DNA of 62,573 nucleotides from Cyanosarcina radialis HA8281-LM2 (GTDB taxonomy: Bacteria > Cyanobacteriota > Cyanobacteriia > Cyanobacteriales > CCAP-1448), in the NCBI GenBank assembly GCA_019359615.1, contig JAHHHA010000035.1:1-62573 (forward strand). The letters run 5' to 3'. This document shows, piece after piece, positions 5,022 through 41,309 of this stretch. A program made the position numbers and the translations under genes. The notes under the pieces are model-generated. The model made no database searches and was not told the DNA's origin. It saw only the letters and a program-made list of their open reading frames with translations. Within the stretch, counting starts at the first letter, position 1. Every line of letters begins with the position of its first letter.

Positions 5022-5078
5022 CGGATTGACACCGTGTAGAGACGCAAGATCTCACGTCTCTACATTATCGAACGTGGA
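5022..5078. repeat. REP-like palindromic element (gtagagacg-N10-cgtctctac with conserved flanks ttgacaccgtg…)
   Basis: Inverted repeat GTAGAGACG/CGTCTCTAC is directly visible. The flank gcggattgacaccgtg is shared with copies near 8440 and 8935. Confidence 0.7.
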
Positions 5079-5079
5079 G

Positions 5080-7899
5080 TTAATTCACCCTGGCGCGGAA
5101 ACGCACAAAACCGTAGGAATTATATGGACTGGGTGGGTAGGTATTTCCTGTAGAGGCAGGTAAAGATGTAGCTCCTTCAACTACTTTGACGACTACAGCA
5201 CCATTGGTATTTGCCGCCTGTCCCGATGATGTGACGTTACCAGAATTATCGAACTTTTTGCAGACGGTAGGCGTAGTGGCATCGCCCGCAGCATAAGAGC
5301 GCCCAGCATCGGCATCAGATGCATTCGTCAACAAGCTGTTAGGAGCAGTTGGTAAAGCAGAGCTATTTAAAGCTAAACCAATACCTGAATTAGCGTTATA
5401 TGTATTGGCGACAAATGTTTGATTGGTTGGGACTAAATCGCAAACTGTGATATTTTTGGCTGTTGTTATTGTATTCAGGAAGTAGATCGTGTACTCAACT
5501 ACATCACCTGGTTTGACATTTCCACCACTAATTGCCCCTCGCAAATAAGTATTTTTAGTAGCAGGCCAATTAGCATGATCGTCATCTGTAGTGCCACTAT
5601 CGTTAACAAATACGTTTAAGGGAGTGTTATCGTTGGGATTTTTGGCACTGTCGCCATTAATTGCTGTGATGCGTTTGACTAAGAGTAATTTGGGTTGCAG
5701 AACGATGTTCAAGGCATAATCTTCTACTTCCCCATAGCTACCGCCGCCTGTAGGATTACTGGCAGTCATAGGAGTTTGATTCAAACGCAACCGAACGTAG
5801 GTTTGCCCATTAGTCAGTCCGCTCAAACCCGTCCAGTTGAGAGTGACATTACCATTAGTACCATTAGTAATAGTTTGAGCCACTCCTTCGCTGGCTTCAA
5901 ATTTGCCATTCCTATTAAAGTCAATCCAACCGACTAAGTAAGCGTTTTGACCCGTAGTATTATTAACTTTCACGGATACGCTGTAGCTGGTACTAGTGGT
6001 TGGTAAAGGATTAAAGCTGCTGACTGCATCTTCATCGTCAGTACCAGTCGTATCGTCACCATTAGCATTGGTGTTAGGGTTGCCATCTGTTTCTTTATCG
6101 GTAGCAACTGTACCTAAGTAAAGGTTATTCCTCAAAATGTGGCTGGCAGCGCTTCCTCCAGTGGCAATATCTTTATTGGTGCCATAGGTGTCTGGAGCAT
6201 CACCAAAGTCAGTATCATCTCCATCGATCAGAATGACTGGAGTTTGGGCAACTGTAAACTTGCCATAAACATAAGTATCGATATATCTGCCGTTGCCAAA
6301 AGAGTTACTATTATCTCCAAAACCTCCACCACTACCTGTTATTCCCCAAGTATGCGTGCCTCCTAACGTCCCGCTGGGAAGAGTAGTGGTCGCTCCTGAA
6401 GGATTGCTCAACCCGGTTTTATCGTCCCAGTAAACTTCTGTTTGAGAAGTGGCTGCACCCGATATGGCTTTATTGATAGTCAACCCAAAAGTAGTCGGTC
6501 CGCTATTTTCCACATCACCCGCAATAAAGTGATATTCTCCCACAATCGCTTGCAATCTTGCTTGATACGTTCCAACTGGAAGGTTAGTTCCGAGATTGGT
6601 TTTCCCATTCCAAAACACGGTCACTTCATTATTGGCATTAGTCTGACCTTTAAGAAACACATCCCCAGACCCATAAATGCCATCGGGGTTAAAACCATTG
6701 TTTGGATCGGCATCATTATCCACATCGATGATAATGGCGTAAGTTCCAGTAGCGTTGGTGGTGAATTTAAAGTTGCCGCTATCTTGTACTCCTGTGGTTA
6801 CTGATGGTGTAATGGTATTATCGACTCCTTGGTTATCTTCAAATCTAAAGTTTTGAATCGTCACCACACTCGCCGCCGATGGCTCTGGGTTTACAGTAGC
6901 TGGATAGCTGAGATATTGTCTGTATTTAGGAGAGACGCTGTTACCAGAAATGGGTACGCTCAAACCTGCGACCGGATTACCAGCAGCATTAGGAGAGTCA
7001 ACTCCTAATTGATTGGCAACCAGTTCGTAGACATATCCGCCAAAATCGTTTAGGTTTAATTGCCAGATATAATTAGTTCCTGGAAATCCGCCTGGAACTC
7101 GAATATAAAGATTGGCATCGGTAGTGTTATCAAAATCATCTGCATTCAAGCCCCAAAGAAACGACCAAAGCCGCCCACTATTGGTCGTAGGATTGGGTGC
7201 CGTGCTGGTATTAGGGGTAACGGAAACATCGAATTGCCGAAAAACGGTGTTTATGTCTGTAAGGCCTGAATTTCTGTTATATAATCTAATTTCATAAACG
7301 CCAGCTTGAGCGGCAGTATGTTGGATACGTCTGCCTCCCCCGTTGGTGCTGGTATCAATATTAGTTAACTGAGCGTATGTACTACAATTAGTGTTGTTGG
7401 CACTAGTTCCAAAACTACCTTGCGATCTATAGTTGGTGGCGTTAGTGGCTGCTGCACCAGCTTGTCCGAAAACTAACGTTCCAGATGCAGGTGGATAACT
7501 AGATCGGGTTCCAGAAAAATCTGCTAGATCGGAACCGACATAATAAATATCTACTTCCCAATCATCCCCAAAAGCGGTACCGCAAGCTGAAACATTAATT
7601 ACTTCTCCGGCTGACTGAATATCTACATAGATGGGTCGGTTGATTCTAGTCAGACCGACAGCACTGATATTTTCATAGGGAGAATCATATTCAAACAAAG
7701 CTTGAAAGGGATCTCCAAGCTGATAGCTGCCTTCAGCCGCAGCCGGTAACGCTACGCCCAGAACCACTAGGGCGCTCAAACTAGTTTTAGCAACGATTCT
7801 AGTCAGCAAAGATGCGATCGCACAATAAGTTTTAGGAGTTCCTTTGCTATTGGCTGAGGGTTGAAGGGATGAATTTTTGTGGAATTGAAATATTGACAT
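5080..7899 (-). CDS. Large secreted Asn/Thr/Gly-rich surface protein with a GEVED domain and a C-terminal DUF11-like repeat
   Basis: 939 aa with an N-terminal signal peptide (…LVVLGVALPAAAEG). The GEVED motif (…SYGEVEDYALNIV) is present. The C-terminal DUF11-like segment is (…VKPGDVVEYTIYFLNT…NITVCDLVP…). Composition is low-complexity N/T/G. Confidence 0.65.
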   Translation of the reverse strand: MSIFQFHKNSSLQPSANSKGTPKTYCAIASLLTRIVAKTSLSALVVLGVALPAAAEGSYQLGDPFQALFEYDSPYENISAVGLTRINRPIYVDIQSAGEVINVSACGTAFGDDWEVDIYYVGSDLADFSGTRSSYPPASGTLVFGQAGAAATNATNYRSQGSFGTSANNTNCSTYAQLTNIDTSTNGGGRRIQHTAAQAGVYEIRLYNRNSGLTDINTVFRQFDVSVTPNTSTAPNPTTNSGRLWSFLWGLNADDFDNTTDANLYIRVPGGFPGTNYIWQLNLNDFGGYVYELVANQLGVDSPNAAGNPVAGLSVPISGNSVSPKYRQYLSYPATVNPEPSAASVVTIQNFRFEDNQGVDNTITPSVTTGVQDSGNFKFTTNATGTYAIIIDVDNDADPNNGFNPDGIYGSGDVFLKGQTNANNEVTVFWNGKTNLGTNLPVGTYQARLQAIVGEYHFIAGDVENSGPTTFGLTINKAISGAATSQTEVYWDDKTGLSNPSGATTTLPSGTLGGTHTWGITGSGGGFGDNSNSFGNGRYIDTYVYGKFTVAQTPVILIDGDDTDFGDAPDTYGTNKDIATGGSAASHILRNNLYLGTVATDKETDGNPNTNANGDDTTGTDDEDAVSSFNPLPTTSTSYSVSVKVNNTTGQNAYLVGWIDFNRNGKFEASEGVAQTITNGTNGNVTLNWTGLSGLTNGQTYVRLRLNQTPMTASNPTGGGSYGEVEDYALNIVLQPKLLLVKRITAINGDSAKNPNDNTPLNVFVNDSGTTDDDHANWPATKNTYLRGAISGGNVKPGDVVEYTIYFLNTITTAKNITVCDLVPTNQTFVANTYNANSGIGLALNSSALPTAPNSLLTNASDADAGRSYAAGDATTPTVCKKFDNSGNVTSSGQAANTNGAVVVKVVEGATSLPASTGNTYPPSPYNSYGFVRFRARVN

Positions 7900-8176
7900 A
7901 GGATTTAACTTAATTTAGCGATCGCAAGTACATAGGTGCTAGAAACCACCCGAAATCCGTCAGCAATTGTGGTAAAAGCTTAGAAACCAAGGTTTTTGTA
8001 TAGGTGCGTATATATCCTAAAAAGTAATTTAAGCGATCGCGCTTGCCCTTCACATCCATATATTTGCGGAATCCTCTGAGCGTTTTGTTTAGTTTTTGGG
8101 GTTTTCACGGATGCAGTATCGGATGTGGGGGTGGTTTAGGAATAGGAGATCGATCTGGTGGGCGATCGACATCCTG

Positions 8177-8202
8177 GGAGACGTTGCATGCAACGTCTCT
8201 AC
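8177..8202. repeat. REP-like palindrome (ggagacgttgcatgcaacgtctctac) overlapping the stop codon of the RAYT gene
   Basis: The hairpin sequence is directly visible. It is the same family as the copies at 8459-8486, 8956-8982 and 27956-27980. Confidence 0.8.
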
Positions 8203-8798
8203 ATCCATAAATTTGTCGGGTTATTTTTATCTGATTCCCATTTGGCTGGGTTGTCGATGATATATTGTCGAATTCGATCTAAGGAACCATCTGCACGGAT
8301 AATATGTTCGTAGAATCGGGTTTGCCAACCAAAATCGCCGCGATCGTTTTTCCGACACCAATGGGTAACGGCAGATTTATACGATCGCACAATTGCACCC
8401 AAAGATTTGGCATTGGGGGAAATGTCAGACATAGATTGACACCGTGCGGATTGACGTTGTAGAGACGTTGCATGCAACGTCTCTACATGGGGTGTAGGCA
8501 CAGACGATAATTCTGCTGGGCGATCGATAACAATAATGCCATGGACGTGGTTCGGCATAACGACCCAGGTATCTATATGTATGTAATTAAAATGCCCTGG
8601 AATATCGACCCAAAATTGTTGGGCAATTTTGCCAATTAGCGATAGTTGCATCTGACTGGCGATAATTTCGCCGAAAAAATGTTGGCGATCGCGGGTGCAG
8701 ATGGTAACGAAATACCAACCATTCGCGGCATAATCGCGATCGGGTAATCTGGTCGATTCTATCCGGTATTTGCCTTGATACCGTGGTGCCGTTGTCAT
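8199..8798 (-). CDS. REP-associated tyrosine transposase (RAYT, IS200/IS605 Y1-HuH family)
   Basis: 199 aa. It has an HuH motif (VMPNHVHGII) and the conserved RAYT N-terminal region (YFVTICTRDRQHFFG). A C-terminal Y-containing region is present (RSYKSAVT…GWQTRFYEHIIR). The gene is flanked on both sides by REP-like palindromes and also contains one. Confidence 0.8.
   Translation of the reverse strand: MTTAPRYQGKYRIESTRLPDRDYAANGWYFVTICTRDRQHFFGEIIASQMQLSLIGKIAQQFWVDIPGHFNYIHIDTWVVMPNHVHGIIVIDRPAELSSVPTPHVETLHATSLQRQSARCQSMSDISPNAKSLGAIVRSYKSAVTHWCRKNDRGDFGWQTRFYEHIIRADGSLDRIRQYIIDNPAKWESDKNNPTNLWM
8436..8515. repeat. REP-like element inside the RAYT coding region (core gtagagacgttgcatgcaacgtctctac at 8459-8486)
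   Basis: Perfect 9-bp inverted repeats around ttgcatgcaa. The insertion is in-frame and is translated as …PHVETLHATSLQ… within the RAYT ORF. Confidence 0.8.
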
Positions 8799-8929
8799 GG
8801 CGAGCGTTTATCTGTTGTGTGAATTGACGTTGCTTTCATTGTTCCCAGTGCGATCGCCTAAATTAATCTAGCGATCTTTAGGTATTAAGGTTGGCGGATA
8901 GATTCGGTTAGCGATCGGGCGACATATAT

Positions 8930-9005
8930 ATTGACACCAGATCGATCGACGTTGTGCAGAGACTTGCATACAACGTCTCTACGTGGGGCGTGGCCATAGA
9001 CGATA
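8930..9005. repeat. REP-like element upstream of RAYT (core gcagagacttgcatacaacgtctctac at 8956-8982)
   Basis: The palindrome and the shared flanks (ttgacacc…gacgttgt…acgtggggcgtggccatagacgat) resemble the 8436-8515 copy. Confidence 0.75.
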
Positions 9006-9498
9006 TATGGGCGCGGGCAATCCAGACAACAGATTTGGGCGATTGCTTCTACTGATGGCAAAGATCTAAATTATTGCCCTCGGTTTTCAACTTCATTAAA
9101 TGCACTCCGCATCAGTATTTACACGGGCAAAAACGATTAAAAAGCCAACTAAAAGCAGTGTTTACACCGTTAAAATATCGCGATCGCTTGCATATTATTA
9201 AACCATGAAAGCTTTTAATTCCCTAATAAATCAAGGATTTGAAGCGCGTAAACCCACCGTTAACTCTCATGAATTACGCTATTTTGCTTAACCAATTAGA
9301 GATGTTTAGCGGACGATAAACCACTAGACTAAATGTCATTTTAGAGATGAGGAGTTGGAATTAGTAAATAAATCAAGTATGAAGACTGTCTATATTTTAT
9401 AGGGCAGAAATCCTCGGTTGATAACGATCGATTCTCCCTCAAACAAGTCCAGATCTATTTAGCAGATTAATTCAGTAAATCAAGGAAATTGCATCTCA

Positions 9499-23635: not shown

Positions 23636-23907
23636 GTTTCAATTTAACGATCGAAGTGCTAGTTATTCTCTAGCTTGCCATAGCATTGAGAGCGCGATCG
23701 AGCCTTCTTCAGCCCGTTAGTCCGCCAGGGGTTGAAAGCCCCCGACAGTGCATCGTTCTTGAGAGGAGCGACGATGATGTCCGTTATTTTTTGTCTTTGG
23801 CACGATCTTAAACCTCGATCGCGTATAGCCTAGAGGTATCTTGTCACTCGTTAAATTCCTGTAAAGACGCGGGATCTCGCGTCTCTACAACTCCTAAACT
23901 TCTGATT

Positions 23908-24324
23908 ATGGAACGCGGTTTAATTTGGTTACCTCTACTGGCACTTTTTATTTGGCTAACTTGGTCCGGTTGGAATGAGTATCAAAAAGTCGAAGCTTAT
24001 CGGCGCTGGGCATCTCAGTTTGAAAAAGCCAAGTACGATATCTATGCGGTTTTGGGCCAAAAAGGTAATGATATTACTTGGGGAAAACCCAGTCGTAAAG
24101 GGCCGGTAGACCTAGAAACTTTTTCCCTCAAAGATGTGAGGTCGATCGCCTTGCTGGTAGATAATAGCCCTGTCGATCTCGAAGTACCACCCGATCGAGG
24201 CCGCACGATTTACCTAGAATTTCTCTTCTTTGATGCAGCTAAATCGGTGAAAATTCCCTTTACAGAAATCGCGCTCGCCGTCGATTGGACTAAGTTTTTA
24301 CAGCAAGAATTGCCAAGAGTTTGA
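23908..24324 (+). CDS. Hypothetical membrane-anchored protein. Its 3' end is the source of two downstream duplicated fragments
   Basis: 138 aa with an N-terminal TM segment (LIWLPLLALFIWLTWSGW). The C-terminal …PVDLEVPPDRGRTIYLEFLFFDAAKSVKIPFTEIALA… recurs at ~25140-25215 and 25895-26045. Confidence 0.5.
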   Translation: MERGLIWLPLLALFIWLTWSGWNEYQKVEAYRRWASQFEKAKYDIYAVLGQKGNDITWGKPSRKGPVDLETFSLKDVRSIALLVDNSPVDLEVPPDRGRTIYLEFLFFDAAKSVKIPFTEIALAVDWTKFLQQELPRV

Positions 24325-27376: not shown

Positions 27377-28594
27377 ATGAACAATTCAAAACAATTGGTT
27401 TCAAGCCTCCCCTTGTCAGGCGAAGCCAATCCAACATCCGAAATTAGATCCCCCCTACCCCCCTTAAAAAGGGGGGCAAGCCAAAATTCCAAATCGATCG
27501 ACTTTTGCCCGATTAACAAATTCGATCACTTAGAGTTCTACGTTGGCAACGCCAAACAGTCAGCGATCTTTTATTCTCAGTGTTTTGGATTCGCGATCGC
27601 GGCTTACCAAGGCTTAGAAACGGGCAGTCGGGAAATTGCCTCCTATGTAATGGAACAAGGCGATATTCGCTTCGTTTTAAGTACCGCCCTCAGTCCAGAT
27701 AGCCCGATCGCTCGCAGCGTCCTTCAACATGGCGATCGCGCGGCCGTTATTGCTTTTGAAGTTCCAGATGCTGTCGTCGCCTACAAAGAGACAACAGCGA
27801 GAGGTGCAGTAGGTGCGATCGCTCCGACAGAAACCGAAGATGGATATGGAATATTCCGCTATTCTGCCATTCAAGGGTATGGCGACACCCTAATTAAATT
27901 CGTCGATCGCAGCGATTACCAAGGTGCATTTGCCCCCGGTTTCCAACGCCGCAATGTAGAGACGTTGCATGCAACGTCTCAGGGGTTGGGATTAAAGGCG
28001 ATCGATCACGTAGTCGGCAACGTGGATTGGGGAGATATGGATCGATGGGTGAAGTTTTTCGCCGAAACCATGGGATTCGAGCTATTAGTGCATTTTGACG
28101 ATCGCGCCATTTCCACCGAGTATTCGGCTTTGATGTCGAAGGTAATGAAAAACAGCACGGGGTCGATCAAACTGCCGATCAACGAACCAGCTACAGGCAA
28201 GAGGCGATCGCAGATCGAAGAGTATCTCGAATACAATCGCGGTCCTGGAGTGCAACACGTCGCCCTGTCTACCGACAACATTATCGAAACGGTAACTAAA
28301 TTAAGAGCGGCAGGAATGGAGTTTCTGCACGCACCAAAAACCTATTATGAAGACTTAGCCGCGCGGGTGGGGCATATTGACGAACCGATCGAGAAATTAG
28401 CAGAACTGGGAATTTTAGTCGATCGAGATTCTGAAGGCTACTTGCTGCAAATCTTTACTCAACCCGTGCAAGATCGTCCCACCTTGTTCTTTGAAGTCAT
28501 CGAACGCCACGGAGCGCAGGGTTTTGGCGAGGGTAATTTTAAAGCCTTGTTTGAAGCGATCGAGCGAGAGCAAGCGTTGCGAGGCAATCTTTGA
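27377..28594 (+). CDS. hppD: 4-hydroxyphenylpyruvate dioxygenase
   Basis: 405 aa with two VOC/glyoxalase-like modules (FDHLEFYVGNAKQSAIFYSQCFGF…; …GVQHVALSTDNIIETV…; …FFEVIERHGAQGFGEGNFKALFEAIEREQ). The N-terminal ~45 aa overlap a dispersed repeat, so the true start is uncertain. An in-frame REP-like palindrome lies at 27956-27980. Confidence 0.85.
   Translation: MNNSKQLVSSLPLSGEANPTSEIRSPLPPLKRGASQNSKSIDFCPINKFDHLEFYVGNAKQSAIFYSQCFGFAIAAYQGLETGSREIASYVMEQGDIRFVLSTALSPDSPIARSVLQHGDRAAVIAFEVPDAVVAYKETTARGAVGAIAPTETEDGYGIFRYSAIQGYGDTLIKFVDRSDYQGAFAPGFQRRNVETLHATSQGLGLKAIDHVVGNVDWGDMDRWVKFFAETMGFELLVHFDDRAISTEYSALMSKVMKNSTGSIKLPINEPATGKRRSQIEEYLEYNRGPGVQHVALSTDNIIETVTKLRAAGMEFLHAPKTYYEDLAARVGHIDEPIEKLAELGILVDRDSEGYLLQIFTQPVQDRPTLFFEVIERHGAQGFGEGNFKALFEAIEREQALRGNL
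27956..27980. repeat. REP-like palindrome (gtagagacgttgcatgcaacgtctc) inserted in-frame inside the HPPD coding sequence
   Basis: The sequence is directly visible. It is translated as …RRNVETLHATSQG… between the two VOC modules. Confidence 0.8.
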
Positions 28595-31731: not shown

Positions 31732-31765
31732 AAGCAGGACAAATTAGAAGTTCAGAAGTTCAGGA

Positions 31766-31794
31766 GGTAGAGACGTTGCAGGCAACGTCTTTAC
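31766..31794. repeat. REP-like palindrome (ggtagagacgttgcaggcaacgtctttac) flanked by AGAAGT(T)C hexamer microsatellites
   Basis: Directly visible. The hexamer runs lie at 31383-31414, 31746-31765 and 31837-31860. Confidence 0.7.
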
Positions 31795-31921
31795 AGGAGT
31801 TCAAGAGTAGGGGCGCAAAGCATTGCGCCCGCATTTGAAGTTCAGAATTCAGAAGTCAAAAAAATCAAAGGCTCGAATGTACGAGGTTTTAACTCAATTC
31901 TAGCTAAGGTCAGGAAATAAG

Positions 31922-41280: not shown

Positions 41281-41309
41281 ATAGAGACGTAGCCGTGCTG
41301 CGTCTCTAT
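41281..41309. repeat. REP-like palindrome variant (atagagacgtagccgtgctgcgtctctat)
   Basis: Directly visible inverted repeat just downstream of desC and upstream of the Rpn-family gene. Confidence 0.6.

Follow-up and report, generated by a model that had tools for sequence, protein, structure and literature searches.

The 62,573-base contig from the metagenome-assembled genome (MAG) Cyanosarcina radialis HA8281-LM2, which we refer to as the window and to which all in-window counts apply (62.5 kb), very probably carries a REPtron of TnpA_REP subclass 2.4 (RAYT Group 4), that is, a single, intact gene of the HUH/Y1 type (single-strand DNA nuclease-ligases) for a REP-associated tyrosine transposase (RAYT, or TnpA_REP) that is flanked by cognate, GTAG-footed repetitive extragenic palindromes (REPs) and holds a further one in frame within its coding sequence, in a hypervariable loop that links the HuH strand to the helix behind it. 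This layout has already been published for the subclass and the locus itself is ordinary. Its parts are the following.

8199..8798, minus strand: RAYT / TnpA_REP gene, 199 aa, ATG start, uninterrupted open reading frame (ORF)
8178..8202, minus strand: 3' REP with a single foot, on the gene strand GTAGAGACGTTGCATGCAACGTCTC, i.e. 5'-GTAG AGACGTTGC ATGC GCAACGTCT C
8459..8486, no strand: intragenic 'double-foot' REP, a perfect 28-nt palindrome GTAGAGACGTTGCATGCAACGTCTCTAC, in frame as V105-L113 (VETLHATSL)
8436..8515, minus strand: variable linker segment that contains the intragenic REP, approximately residues 96-121, disordered in the model
8930..9005, minus strand: upstream copy of the linker-like stretch of ~80 nt, located 132-207 nt before the ATG and holding a degenerate hairpin (8954-8982)

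An earlier note on this DNA had proposed a RAYT gene with its cognate REPs around and inside it, and the intact 199-aa ORF, its motifs, its fold and the three palindromes bear this out. As that note had it, the 3' copy overlaps the stop codon, with the GTAG foot of the palindrome at 8178-8202 giving the last base of the final ATG codon together with the TAG stop (8199-8201). The copy that it had placed in frame within the gene, between the HuH motif and the tyrosine, is the perfect 28-nt palindrome at 8459-8486, and the copy that it had placed upstream is likewise present: although the hairpin at 8954-8982 is degenerate, 8930-9005 aligns with 8436-8515 across ~80 columns at ~80% identity, extending far past the hairpin, and tblastn located the linker peptide also at 9012-8962. 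The shared ~80 nt contain an internal duplication of 15 nt (GTCAAT CCGCAC GGTGTCAAT) and run into the first codons that follow the linker. The 22-nt core has three exact matches and one match with two mismatches in the window, compared to none in 100 shuffles, and all copies fold as DNA hairpins better than shuffled sequences do (z-scores of -2.2 to -5.7).

The product of 8199..8798 is 100% identical to a database protein of the same MAG, which NCBI labels 'transposase' and JGI labels 'REP element-mobilizing transposase RayT'. Its match to Pfam Y1_Tnp is marginal (24.3 bits against a cut-off of 23) and covers the C-terminal half only, and it carries the HuH motif as H84-V-H86, the pair W158-Q159 and a candidate catalytic tyrosine, Y179, within YIIDNP. 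In an alignment of the window RAYT with 30 of 6,057 homologs, the closest of which is only 67% identical, H84, H86, W158, Q159, Y179 and N183 are invariant and the core is well conserved, whereas the stretch directly after the HuH strand varies widely in length among the 31 sequences. The sole sequence-profile match in the PDB is 4er8, with partial alignments at ~22% identity in which the WQ and Y motifs align with W94-Q95 and YIYINP of the E. coli protein. An AlphaFold2 model built from the alignment has a confident core (pTM 0.70), with residues 99-127, which comprise the REP-encoded segment and its surroundings, at a predicted local distance difference test score (pLDDT) below 50. The top Foldseek match of this model is again 4er8_A, the E. 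coli TnpA_REP with a REP hairpin (E = 7.6e-7, TM 0.47/0.56), and ranks 2-30 are IS200/IS605 TnpAs.

The class assignment follows the published description of these transposases. RAYT Group 4 was defined by Bertels et al. 2017 (PMC5581495), and all 100 of its sequences are contained in TnpA_REP subclass 2.4 of Quentin, Siguier, Chandler and Fichant 2018 (PMC6006769), which is characterized by the motifs NH[IFV]H, WQ and YIxNNP, a median length of 194 aa, hosts among Cyanobacteria, Bacteroidetes and scattered phyla, and REPs that are 'long' or 'double-foot' (5' GT[AG]G ... C[TC]AC 3'). The unique hallmark of the subclass is that the gene itself has in-frame REP insertions between HuH and Y. The insertion is of variable length and was modelled as a peripheral extension that follows beta3 (HuH), precedes the next helix and lies off the active site (PMC6006769). 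The window RAYT has NHVH, WQ and YIIDNP (with D where the consensus has N) at a length of 199 aa, and shows the variable insertion, double-foot REPs and an in-frame REP; as in other REPtrons, the gene is flanked by its cognate REPs, here the 3' REP at 8178-8202 and the degenerate upstream REP at 8954-8982. By analogy with the TnpA_REPs of E. coli, Stenotrophomonas and Marinomonas (PMC8266576, PMC3479197), the protein would bind the folded single-stranded REP hairpin with its GTAG foot. It may then cleave and rejoin beside the hairpin, with strand transfer at the foot, such that REPs are spread or maintained, as the biochemistry of Groups 2 and 3 and the 4ER8 structure suggest. The intragenic REP would thus be a substrate-like sequence, presumably tolerated because it merely lengthens a peripheral loop.

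Comparison of homologous loci indicates that the intragenic palindrome is a family-wide element that is conserved as nucleic acid, not as protein, and no private accident of this gene. Homologous-locus DNA gave 80 listed matches from many phyla (~11 are cyanobacterial, and the groups represented are Cyanobacteria, Bacteroidota, Patescibacteria, Chlorobiota, Ignavibacteria, Kuenenia, Gammaproteobacteria, Chloroflexi and Desulfuromonas), in which 77 genes were analysable; the locus counts below refer to these listed matches. In 54 of 77 loci the linker between HuH and WQ holds a perfect palindrome whose arms measure 8 bp or more, and in 34 loci the palindrome takes the form of a 28-29-nt GTAG...CTAC hairpin. 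Across these 34 hairpins there is almost no variation in the outer eight pairs (GTAGAGAC) and the inner six pairs show fully compensatory changes, with pair 10 being T-A 13 times, C-G 13 times and A-T 6 times, while the central unpaired base takes all four values and the stem stays perfect. The hairpin is read as VET... in 27 cases and as RD... in seven; the TAG-containing third frame, which at the 3' REP of the window supplies the RAYT stop codon, is never used by the 34 intragenic copies. The 28-mer of the window is identical at 28 of 28 positions to the intragenic hairpins of four loci from a Piscirickettsiaceae MAG, a Chlorobiota MAG, a Bacteroidetes MAG and another gammaproteobacterial MAG (L012, L016, L027 and L031), whereas the proteins are only 42-49% identical.

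At the protein level, the stretch after HuH reads NVETLHCNVSTQ, NVETRNFASLQ or CRDVACNVST in most aligned homologs, and these peptides are translations of one kind of palindrome with differing inner stems, loops or frames. Patterns of such REP-encoded peptides are present in 88 of the 115 closest classifiable protein homologs, and about a dozen more have degenerate forms recognizable by eye. When read through in frame, as in RAYT and in a second gene of the window described below, REPs give peptides such as VETLHATSL and RDVACNVST that resemble conserved protein motifs, which is a caution for annotation. In 34 of 77 loci the linker hairpin has a significant match no more than a few hundred bases beyond the ends of the gene. 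Where intragenic and flanking copies are both present, their inner stems agree in 25 loci and are truly discordant in ~5. The linker of one relative (L093, ~1740-1850) and those of proteins P0003, P0037, P0076, P0090 and P0103 hold tandem arrays of half-REPs, for example (ATGTAGAGACGCGAAATTTCACAG) x4, translated as (DVETRNFT)n; another relative (L092, ~450-680) has an array of ~23-nt AAAATAATGTAAAGACGTAGCAC units upstream of the gene. Short repeats in the linker region of RAYTs are mentioned by Quentin et al. (PMC6006769).

The earlier note had asked if the in-frame copy is a tolerated insertion or has inactivated the gene. Its first option is in keeping with the intact ORF, the invariant columns and the disordered loop and its second option is not, so that the question resolves to a tolerated, subclass-defining and already described feature. 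Inactivation by REP insertion, with the gene now a decaying pseudogene, is very unlikely because the ORF is uninterrupted and all invariant family columns are kept; a pseudogene would fit the insertion of the palindrome between two catalytic motifs and the NCBIfam score given below, but most homologs examined share the arrangement, and the segment is a disordered loop between parts of a confident core that published modelling places off the active site (PMC6006769). Given that the palindrome lies at the same place in 54 of 77 loci and that the segment is a predicted disordered loop, the RAYT gene is most likely active, as far as sequence comparison and modelling can indicate, and the label of a disrupted transposase should be avoided for this ORF. 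The idea of a one-off insertion likewise gives way to the finding that most homologs, in various phyla, have the same palindrome at this place, the published hallmark of subclass 2.4. The proposed check by ortholog alignment, under which a native, conserved segment would have meant a coincidental resemblance to REPs, posed a false dichotomy: the segment is conserved in orthologs, but conservation is of the DNA, in two frames and with compensatory stems. That the internal match is native conserved coding sequence which merely happens to look like a REP has next to no probability: the conservation of VET...S(L/T) peptides in orthologs would suit it, but one DNA palindrome yields the unrelated peptides VETLHATSL and RDVACNVST, depending on which of two frames is read, and the TAG frame is never used, the central base varies freely above a perfect stem, and the 22-nt core is identical to that of the extragenic copies at 8178 and 27959. 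Two-frame reading and compensatory stems in the 34 loci refute such a coincidence, and synonymous recoding is not common among homologs. The segment is neither coincidence nor native protein sequence.

Several points weigh against the subclass 2.4 REPtron assignment and its functional interpretation. The upstream hairpin at 8954-8982 departs from the consensus by one indel and some mismatches, and the RAYT scores 59.3 bits on NCBIfam REP_Tyr_transpos (NF047646), under the equivalog cut-off of 80. The published TnpA_REP activity assays that we found concern Groups 2 and 3 only and none was made on subclass 2.4 (PMC8266576), and genome-wide REP abundance is an extrapolation from 62.5 kb. Furthermore, 22 of the 77 listed relatives are without a perfect intragenic palindrome, 19 of which keep flanking palindromes. 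The possibility that an intragenic REP is required for having REPs at all is rejected on the basis of these same 19 loci, and because they still carry flanking palindromes the intragenic copy appears to be common but dispensable.

Alleles of the locus in relatives raise the further possibility that the intragenic REP is more than a passenger. We classified the linker and the residues that follow it into types, which are of our own definition and post hoc, and found that inner-stem type tracks the following residues across phyla: ISPK goes with GTTGCA in 17 of 17 loci, NKFGP with GCrAAAT-like stems in 11 of 11, GGxTG with GCGAT in 7 of 8 and KWKP with GCCCAA in 3 of 3. Among 113 cyanobacterial homologs, class A has VETLxCNVST or VETLHATSL followed by FMSxISPKxGSLGAIxRS, and class B has VETRNFASLQ followed by SNKFxPLKxGSLQAIIHA; the corresponding REPs are GTTGCAnTGCAAC (type A) and GCGAAATTTCGC (type B). 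Identity does not depend on class in the N-terminal part (0.674 between versus 0.679 within classes) or in the C-terminal remainder (0.718 versus 0.719), whereas over the first 24 residues after the linker identity is 0.62 between and 0.72 within classes. When mapped onto a tree built from the remaining protein sequence, class is scattered in a near-random manner (27 Fitch steps compared to a random mean of 35.5), and between-class pairs can be up to 95% identical outside the cassette.

Four pairs of relatives (L086/L088, L089/L091, L092/L093 and L094/L095) each represent one locus whose flanks are 83-100% identical and whose central patch is completely replaced. The replaced patch begins within the hairpin, just after GTAGAGACG, and ends near the YKSAVT codons where the boundary is sharp, most clearly in L092/L093; in L086/L088 it spans ~180 nt between these two landmarks. 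The swap comprises the inner stem of the hairpin and a further ~25-45 codons that extend into the helix behind it. The REPs upstream and downstream of the gene change too in L089/L091 and L092/L093, at identical positions, from GT(T/A)GCAnTGC(A/T)AC to GCGAAATTTCGC, and the immediate flanks of these REPs are kept (83-99% identical). The flanking REPs of L086/L088 are not switched and L094/L095 has none, so that, of the three pairs with flanking REPs, two show the switch. A type A REP also lies in frame (GCVETLHCNVSTK) in the large upstream surface-protein gene at L089:1672-1702, where the orthologous site in L091 is 24 nt shorter and lacks the palindrome. Within the coding region, the replacement extends over part of the helix that lies between HuH and WQ (133-150 in the AlphaFold2 model). 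The counterpart of this helix in E. coli TnpA_REP, alpha3, is the DNA-binding helix that touches the REP stem (PMC8266576); correspondence of the cassette to alpha3 is approximate, since it is derived from partial alignments.

These observations tentatively suggest that a specificity cassette, which RAYT genes of subclass 2.4 can exchange, has the intragenic REP at its 5' edge. It would join a copy of the substrate to its recognition determinant, namely the inner stem to the beginning of the DNA-binding helix; alternative alleles of it would occur at one locus in near-identical strains, and neighboring REPs would be re-typed in place to match. We consider this idea, a maintained functional module that would extend the subclass 2.4 assignment and is compatible with it, somewhat improbable. 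The tracking of helix start by inner stem across phyla, the confinement of the class effect to 24 residues amid a scattered class distribution, the single-patch replacements accompanied by REP switching in L089/L091 and L092/L093, and the contact of E. coli alpha3, which likewise lies between HuH and WQ, with the REP stem all argue for it. On the other hand, the pairs number only four and the classes were defined after the fact, the unswitched REPs of L086/L088 do not conform, relatives without the hairpin retain flanking REPs, the mapping onto alpha3 is approximate, and nothing of the kind is visible in the window itself, whose best homolog is 67% identical. Moreover, the same pattern of three patches could arise, with no RAYT chemistry involved, by gene conversion in one tract from a paralogous REPtron that is near-identical. 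A different kind of unit is conceivable for the similarity between 8436-8515 and 8930-9005, which could stem from a mobile element longer than the REP and resembling a MITE (miniature inverted-repeat transposable element), as opposed to local duplication or gene conversion. We regard this as unlikely. In its favor, the similarity reaches ~25 nt to either side of the hairpin, the copy at 5036 has the tail GTCAATCCGCAC, and linker and upstream REPs share hairpin and tail also in L016, L026, L066 and L080. By contrast, a metagenome scan for the tail ACAACGTCRATC-N5-7-GGTGTCAAT, in a collection that does not hold the contig of the window, returned five unrelated, non-cyanobacterial chance matches, and GTCAA and GTCRAT tails stand beside REPs in only 5 and 2 of 147 palindromes (81 loci), respectively, and so are no feature of the family. 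The shared stretch also enters the conserved QRQ.MS codons and carries the 15-nt internal duplication, both of which suggest that a segment of the gene was copied in its present form.

Cassette exchange in RAYTs was not found described in the most relevant papers or by full-text literature search, and a literature search on the bare GTAGAGACG gave unrelated primer matches only. If the cassette interpretation is true, it would explain why a REP sits at exactly the same position of the gene across phyla, the paired, near-identical RAYT alleles would constitute natural swap mutants for reading the recognition code between RAYT and REP, and the recognition and diversification of perfect-palindrome REPs would become directly testable.

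The window has one RAYT gene only and, beyond the REPtron, five further REPs, as follows.

5036..5063, no strand: dispersed double-foot REP with another inner stem (GCAAGATCTCAC), 17 nt downstream of the stop of a GEVED-domain gene
23861..23888, no strand: dispersed double-foot REP, GTAAAGACGCGGGATCTCGCGTCTCTAC, ending 19 nt upstream of an ORF that starts at 23908
27956..27980, plus strand: dispersed single-foot REP with a core identical to that of the RAYT copies, in frame in a 4-hydroxyphenylpyruvate dioxygenase (HPPD) gene (NVETLHATS)
31767..31794, no strand: dispersed double-foot REP with the inner stem GTTGCAGGCAAC and one G-T mismatch, between convergent ORFs
41281..41309, no strand: diverged copy, ATAGAGACGTAGC...GCTGCGTCTCTAT, between convergent ORFs and followed by a T run

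The total is thus eight copies, all variants included (5036-5063, 8178-8202, 8459-8486, 8954-8982, 23861-23888, 27956-27980, 31767-31794 and 41281-41309), which falls short of the nine or more counted in the earlier note, and only five of the eight have an inner stem of the GTTGCA type. The REP doublets (REPINs) that the note had led one to expect were not found among these eight, all of which are single palindromes, double-foot or single-foot, with nearest neighbors more than 250 nt apart. The tail mentioned above, GTCAATCCGCAC, is common to the copy at 5036 and the intragenic copy. Copies outside the RAYT and HPPD genes are intergenic and lie mostly between convergent genes or just past gene ends. 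In the HPPD gene (ORF 27377-28594, plus strand), the REP falls in the interdomain linker, giving the peptide …FQRRNVETLHATSQG…, and in the closest HPPD ortholog (P0121, 87% identical) this place is taken by HVETFHG, a decayed version. A clean net insertion was considered for this copy and rejected, given that the linker exceeds that of most orthologs by only 1-4 residues; the similar linker length together with the decayed version in the closest relative indicates that the HPPD REP is old at its site. The copy at 31767-31794 is followed, within the region 31745-31850, by a second, unrelated hairpin, GGGCGCAA-agca-TTGCGCCC (31811-31830), whose two half-sites both recur singly elsewhere in the window; the REP and this hairpin are bracketed by three direct repeats of GAAGTTCAG (31747, 31755 and 31837).

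Regarding the surroundings of the locus, the RAYT gene lies directly upstream of, and on the same strand as, a large gene for a GEVED-domain surface protein both in the window (5080-7899, minus strand) and in the relatives L089/L090, and the gene downstream of RAYT encodes a large SdrD_B-type protein in L086, L087, L091 and L093 and one without a recorded domain in L088. The GEVED proteins of the window and of L089 share similarity at the level of the domain only (26% over 353 aa, E = 5e-11), which does not establish orthology of the two loci. The contig has a G+C content of 46% and holds 77 copies of the HIP1 octamer GCGATCGC, several of them within the RAYT gene, where ~1 is expected, as is typical of cyanobacteria. 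An Rfam scan of 7800-9400 returned only two sub-threshold chance matches, and promoter and terminator scans gave sites no more numerous than in shuffled sequence.

Among known systems, the IS200/IS605 TnpAs (IS608, ISDra2) share with the window RAYT the catalytic fold and the logic of hairpin ends, but these elements are multi-copy mobile insertion sequences with hairpins at their subterminal ends, whereas the window has a single copy of the gene and hairpins that are dispersed alone. The E. coli TnpA_REP and its REPtron (PDB 4ER8; Group 2, subclass 2.2) are alike in HUH/Y1 fold, in GTAG-tagged flanking REPs and in the presumed recognition of single-strand hairpins. Unlike those of the window, E. 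coli REPs are imperfect palindromes with a bulge and are organised as bacterial interspersed mosaic elements (BIMEs) or REPINs; the E. coli gene is also without an internal REP and its protein has a C-terminal tail that is missing from the window RAYT. REPINs (Bertels and Rainey 2011) resemble the window copies in being non-autonomous palindromic repeats tied to a single-copy RAYT (one copy in the 62.5 kb here), yet consist of an inverted REP doublet with a spacer, as opposed to the single palindromes seen here. Di Nocera et al. 2013 (PMC3733652) described GTAG-tagged REP families, including the cyanobacterial GTAG-12, -15 and -16, and in-frame REPs in ordinary genes; the GTAG foot and the in-frame copy in HPPD have their likeness there, although in those families GTAG is an unpaired tag and in the window it is part of a perfect palindrome, and PMC3733652 does not report REPs inside RAYT genes. 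The closest counterpart is TnpA_REP subclass 2.4 / RAYT Group 4 itself, with which the locus shares its motifs, a length near ~194 aa, a cyanobacterial host, double-foot flanking REPs and the in-frame REP in a variable peripheral loop. Nothing essential differs from that subclass: the window has YIIDNP in place of YIxNNP, its stop codon is supplied by the foot of the 3' REP and its upstream copy shares ~80 nt with the linker.

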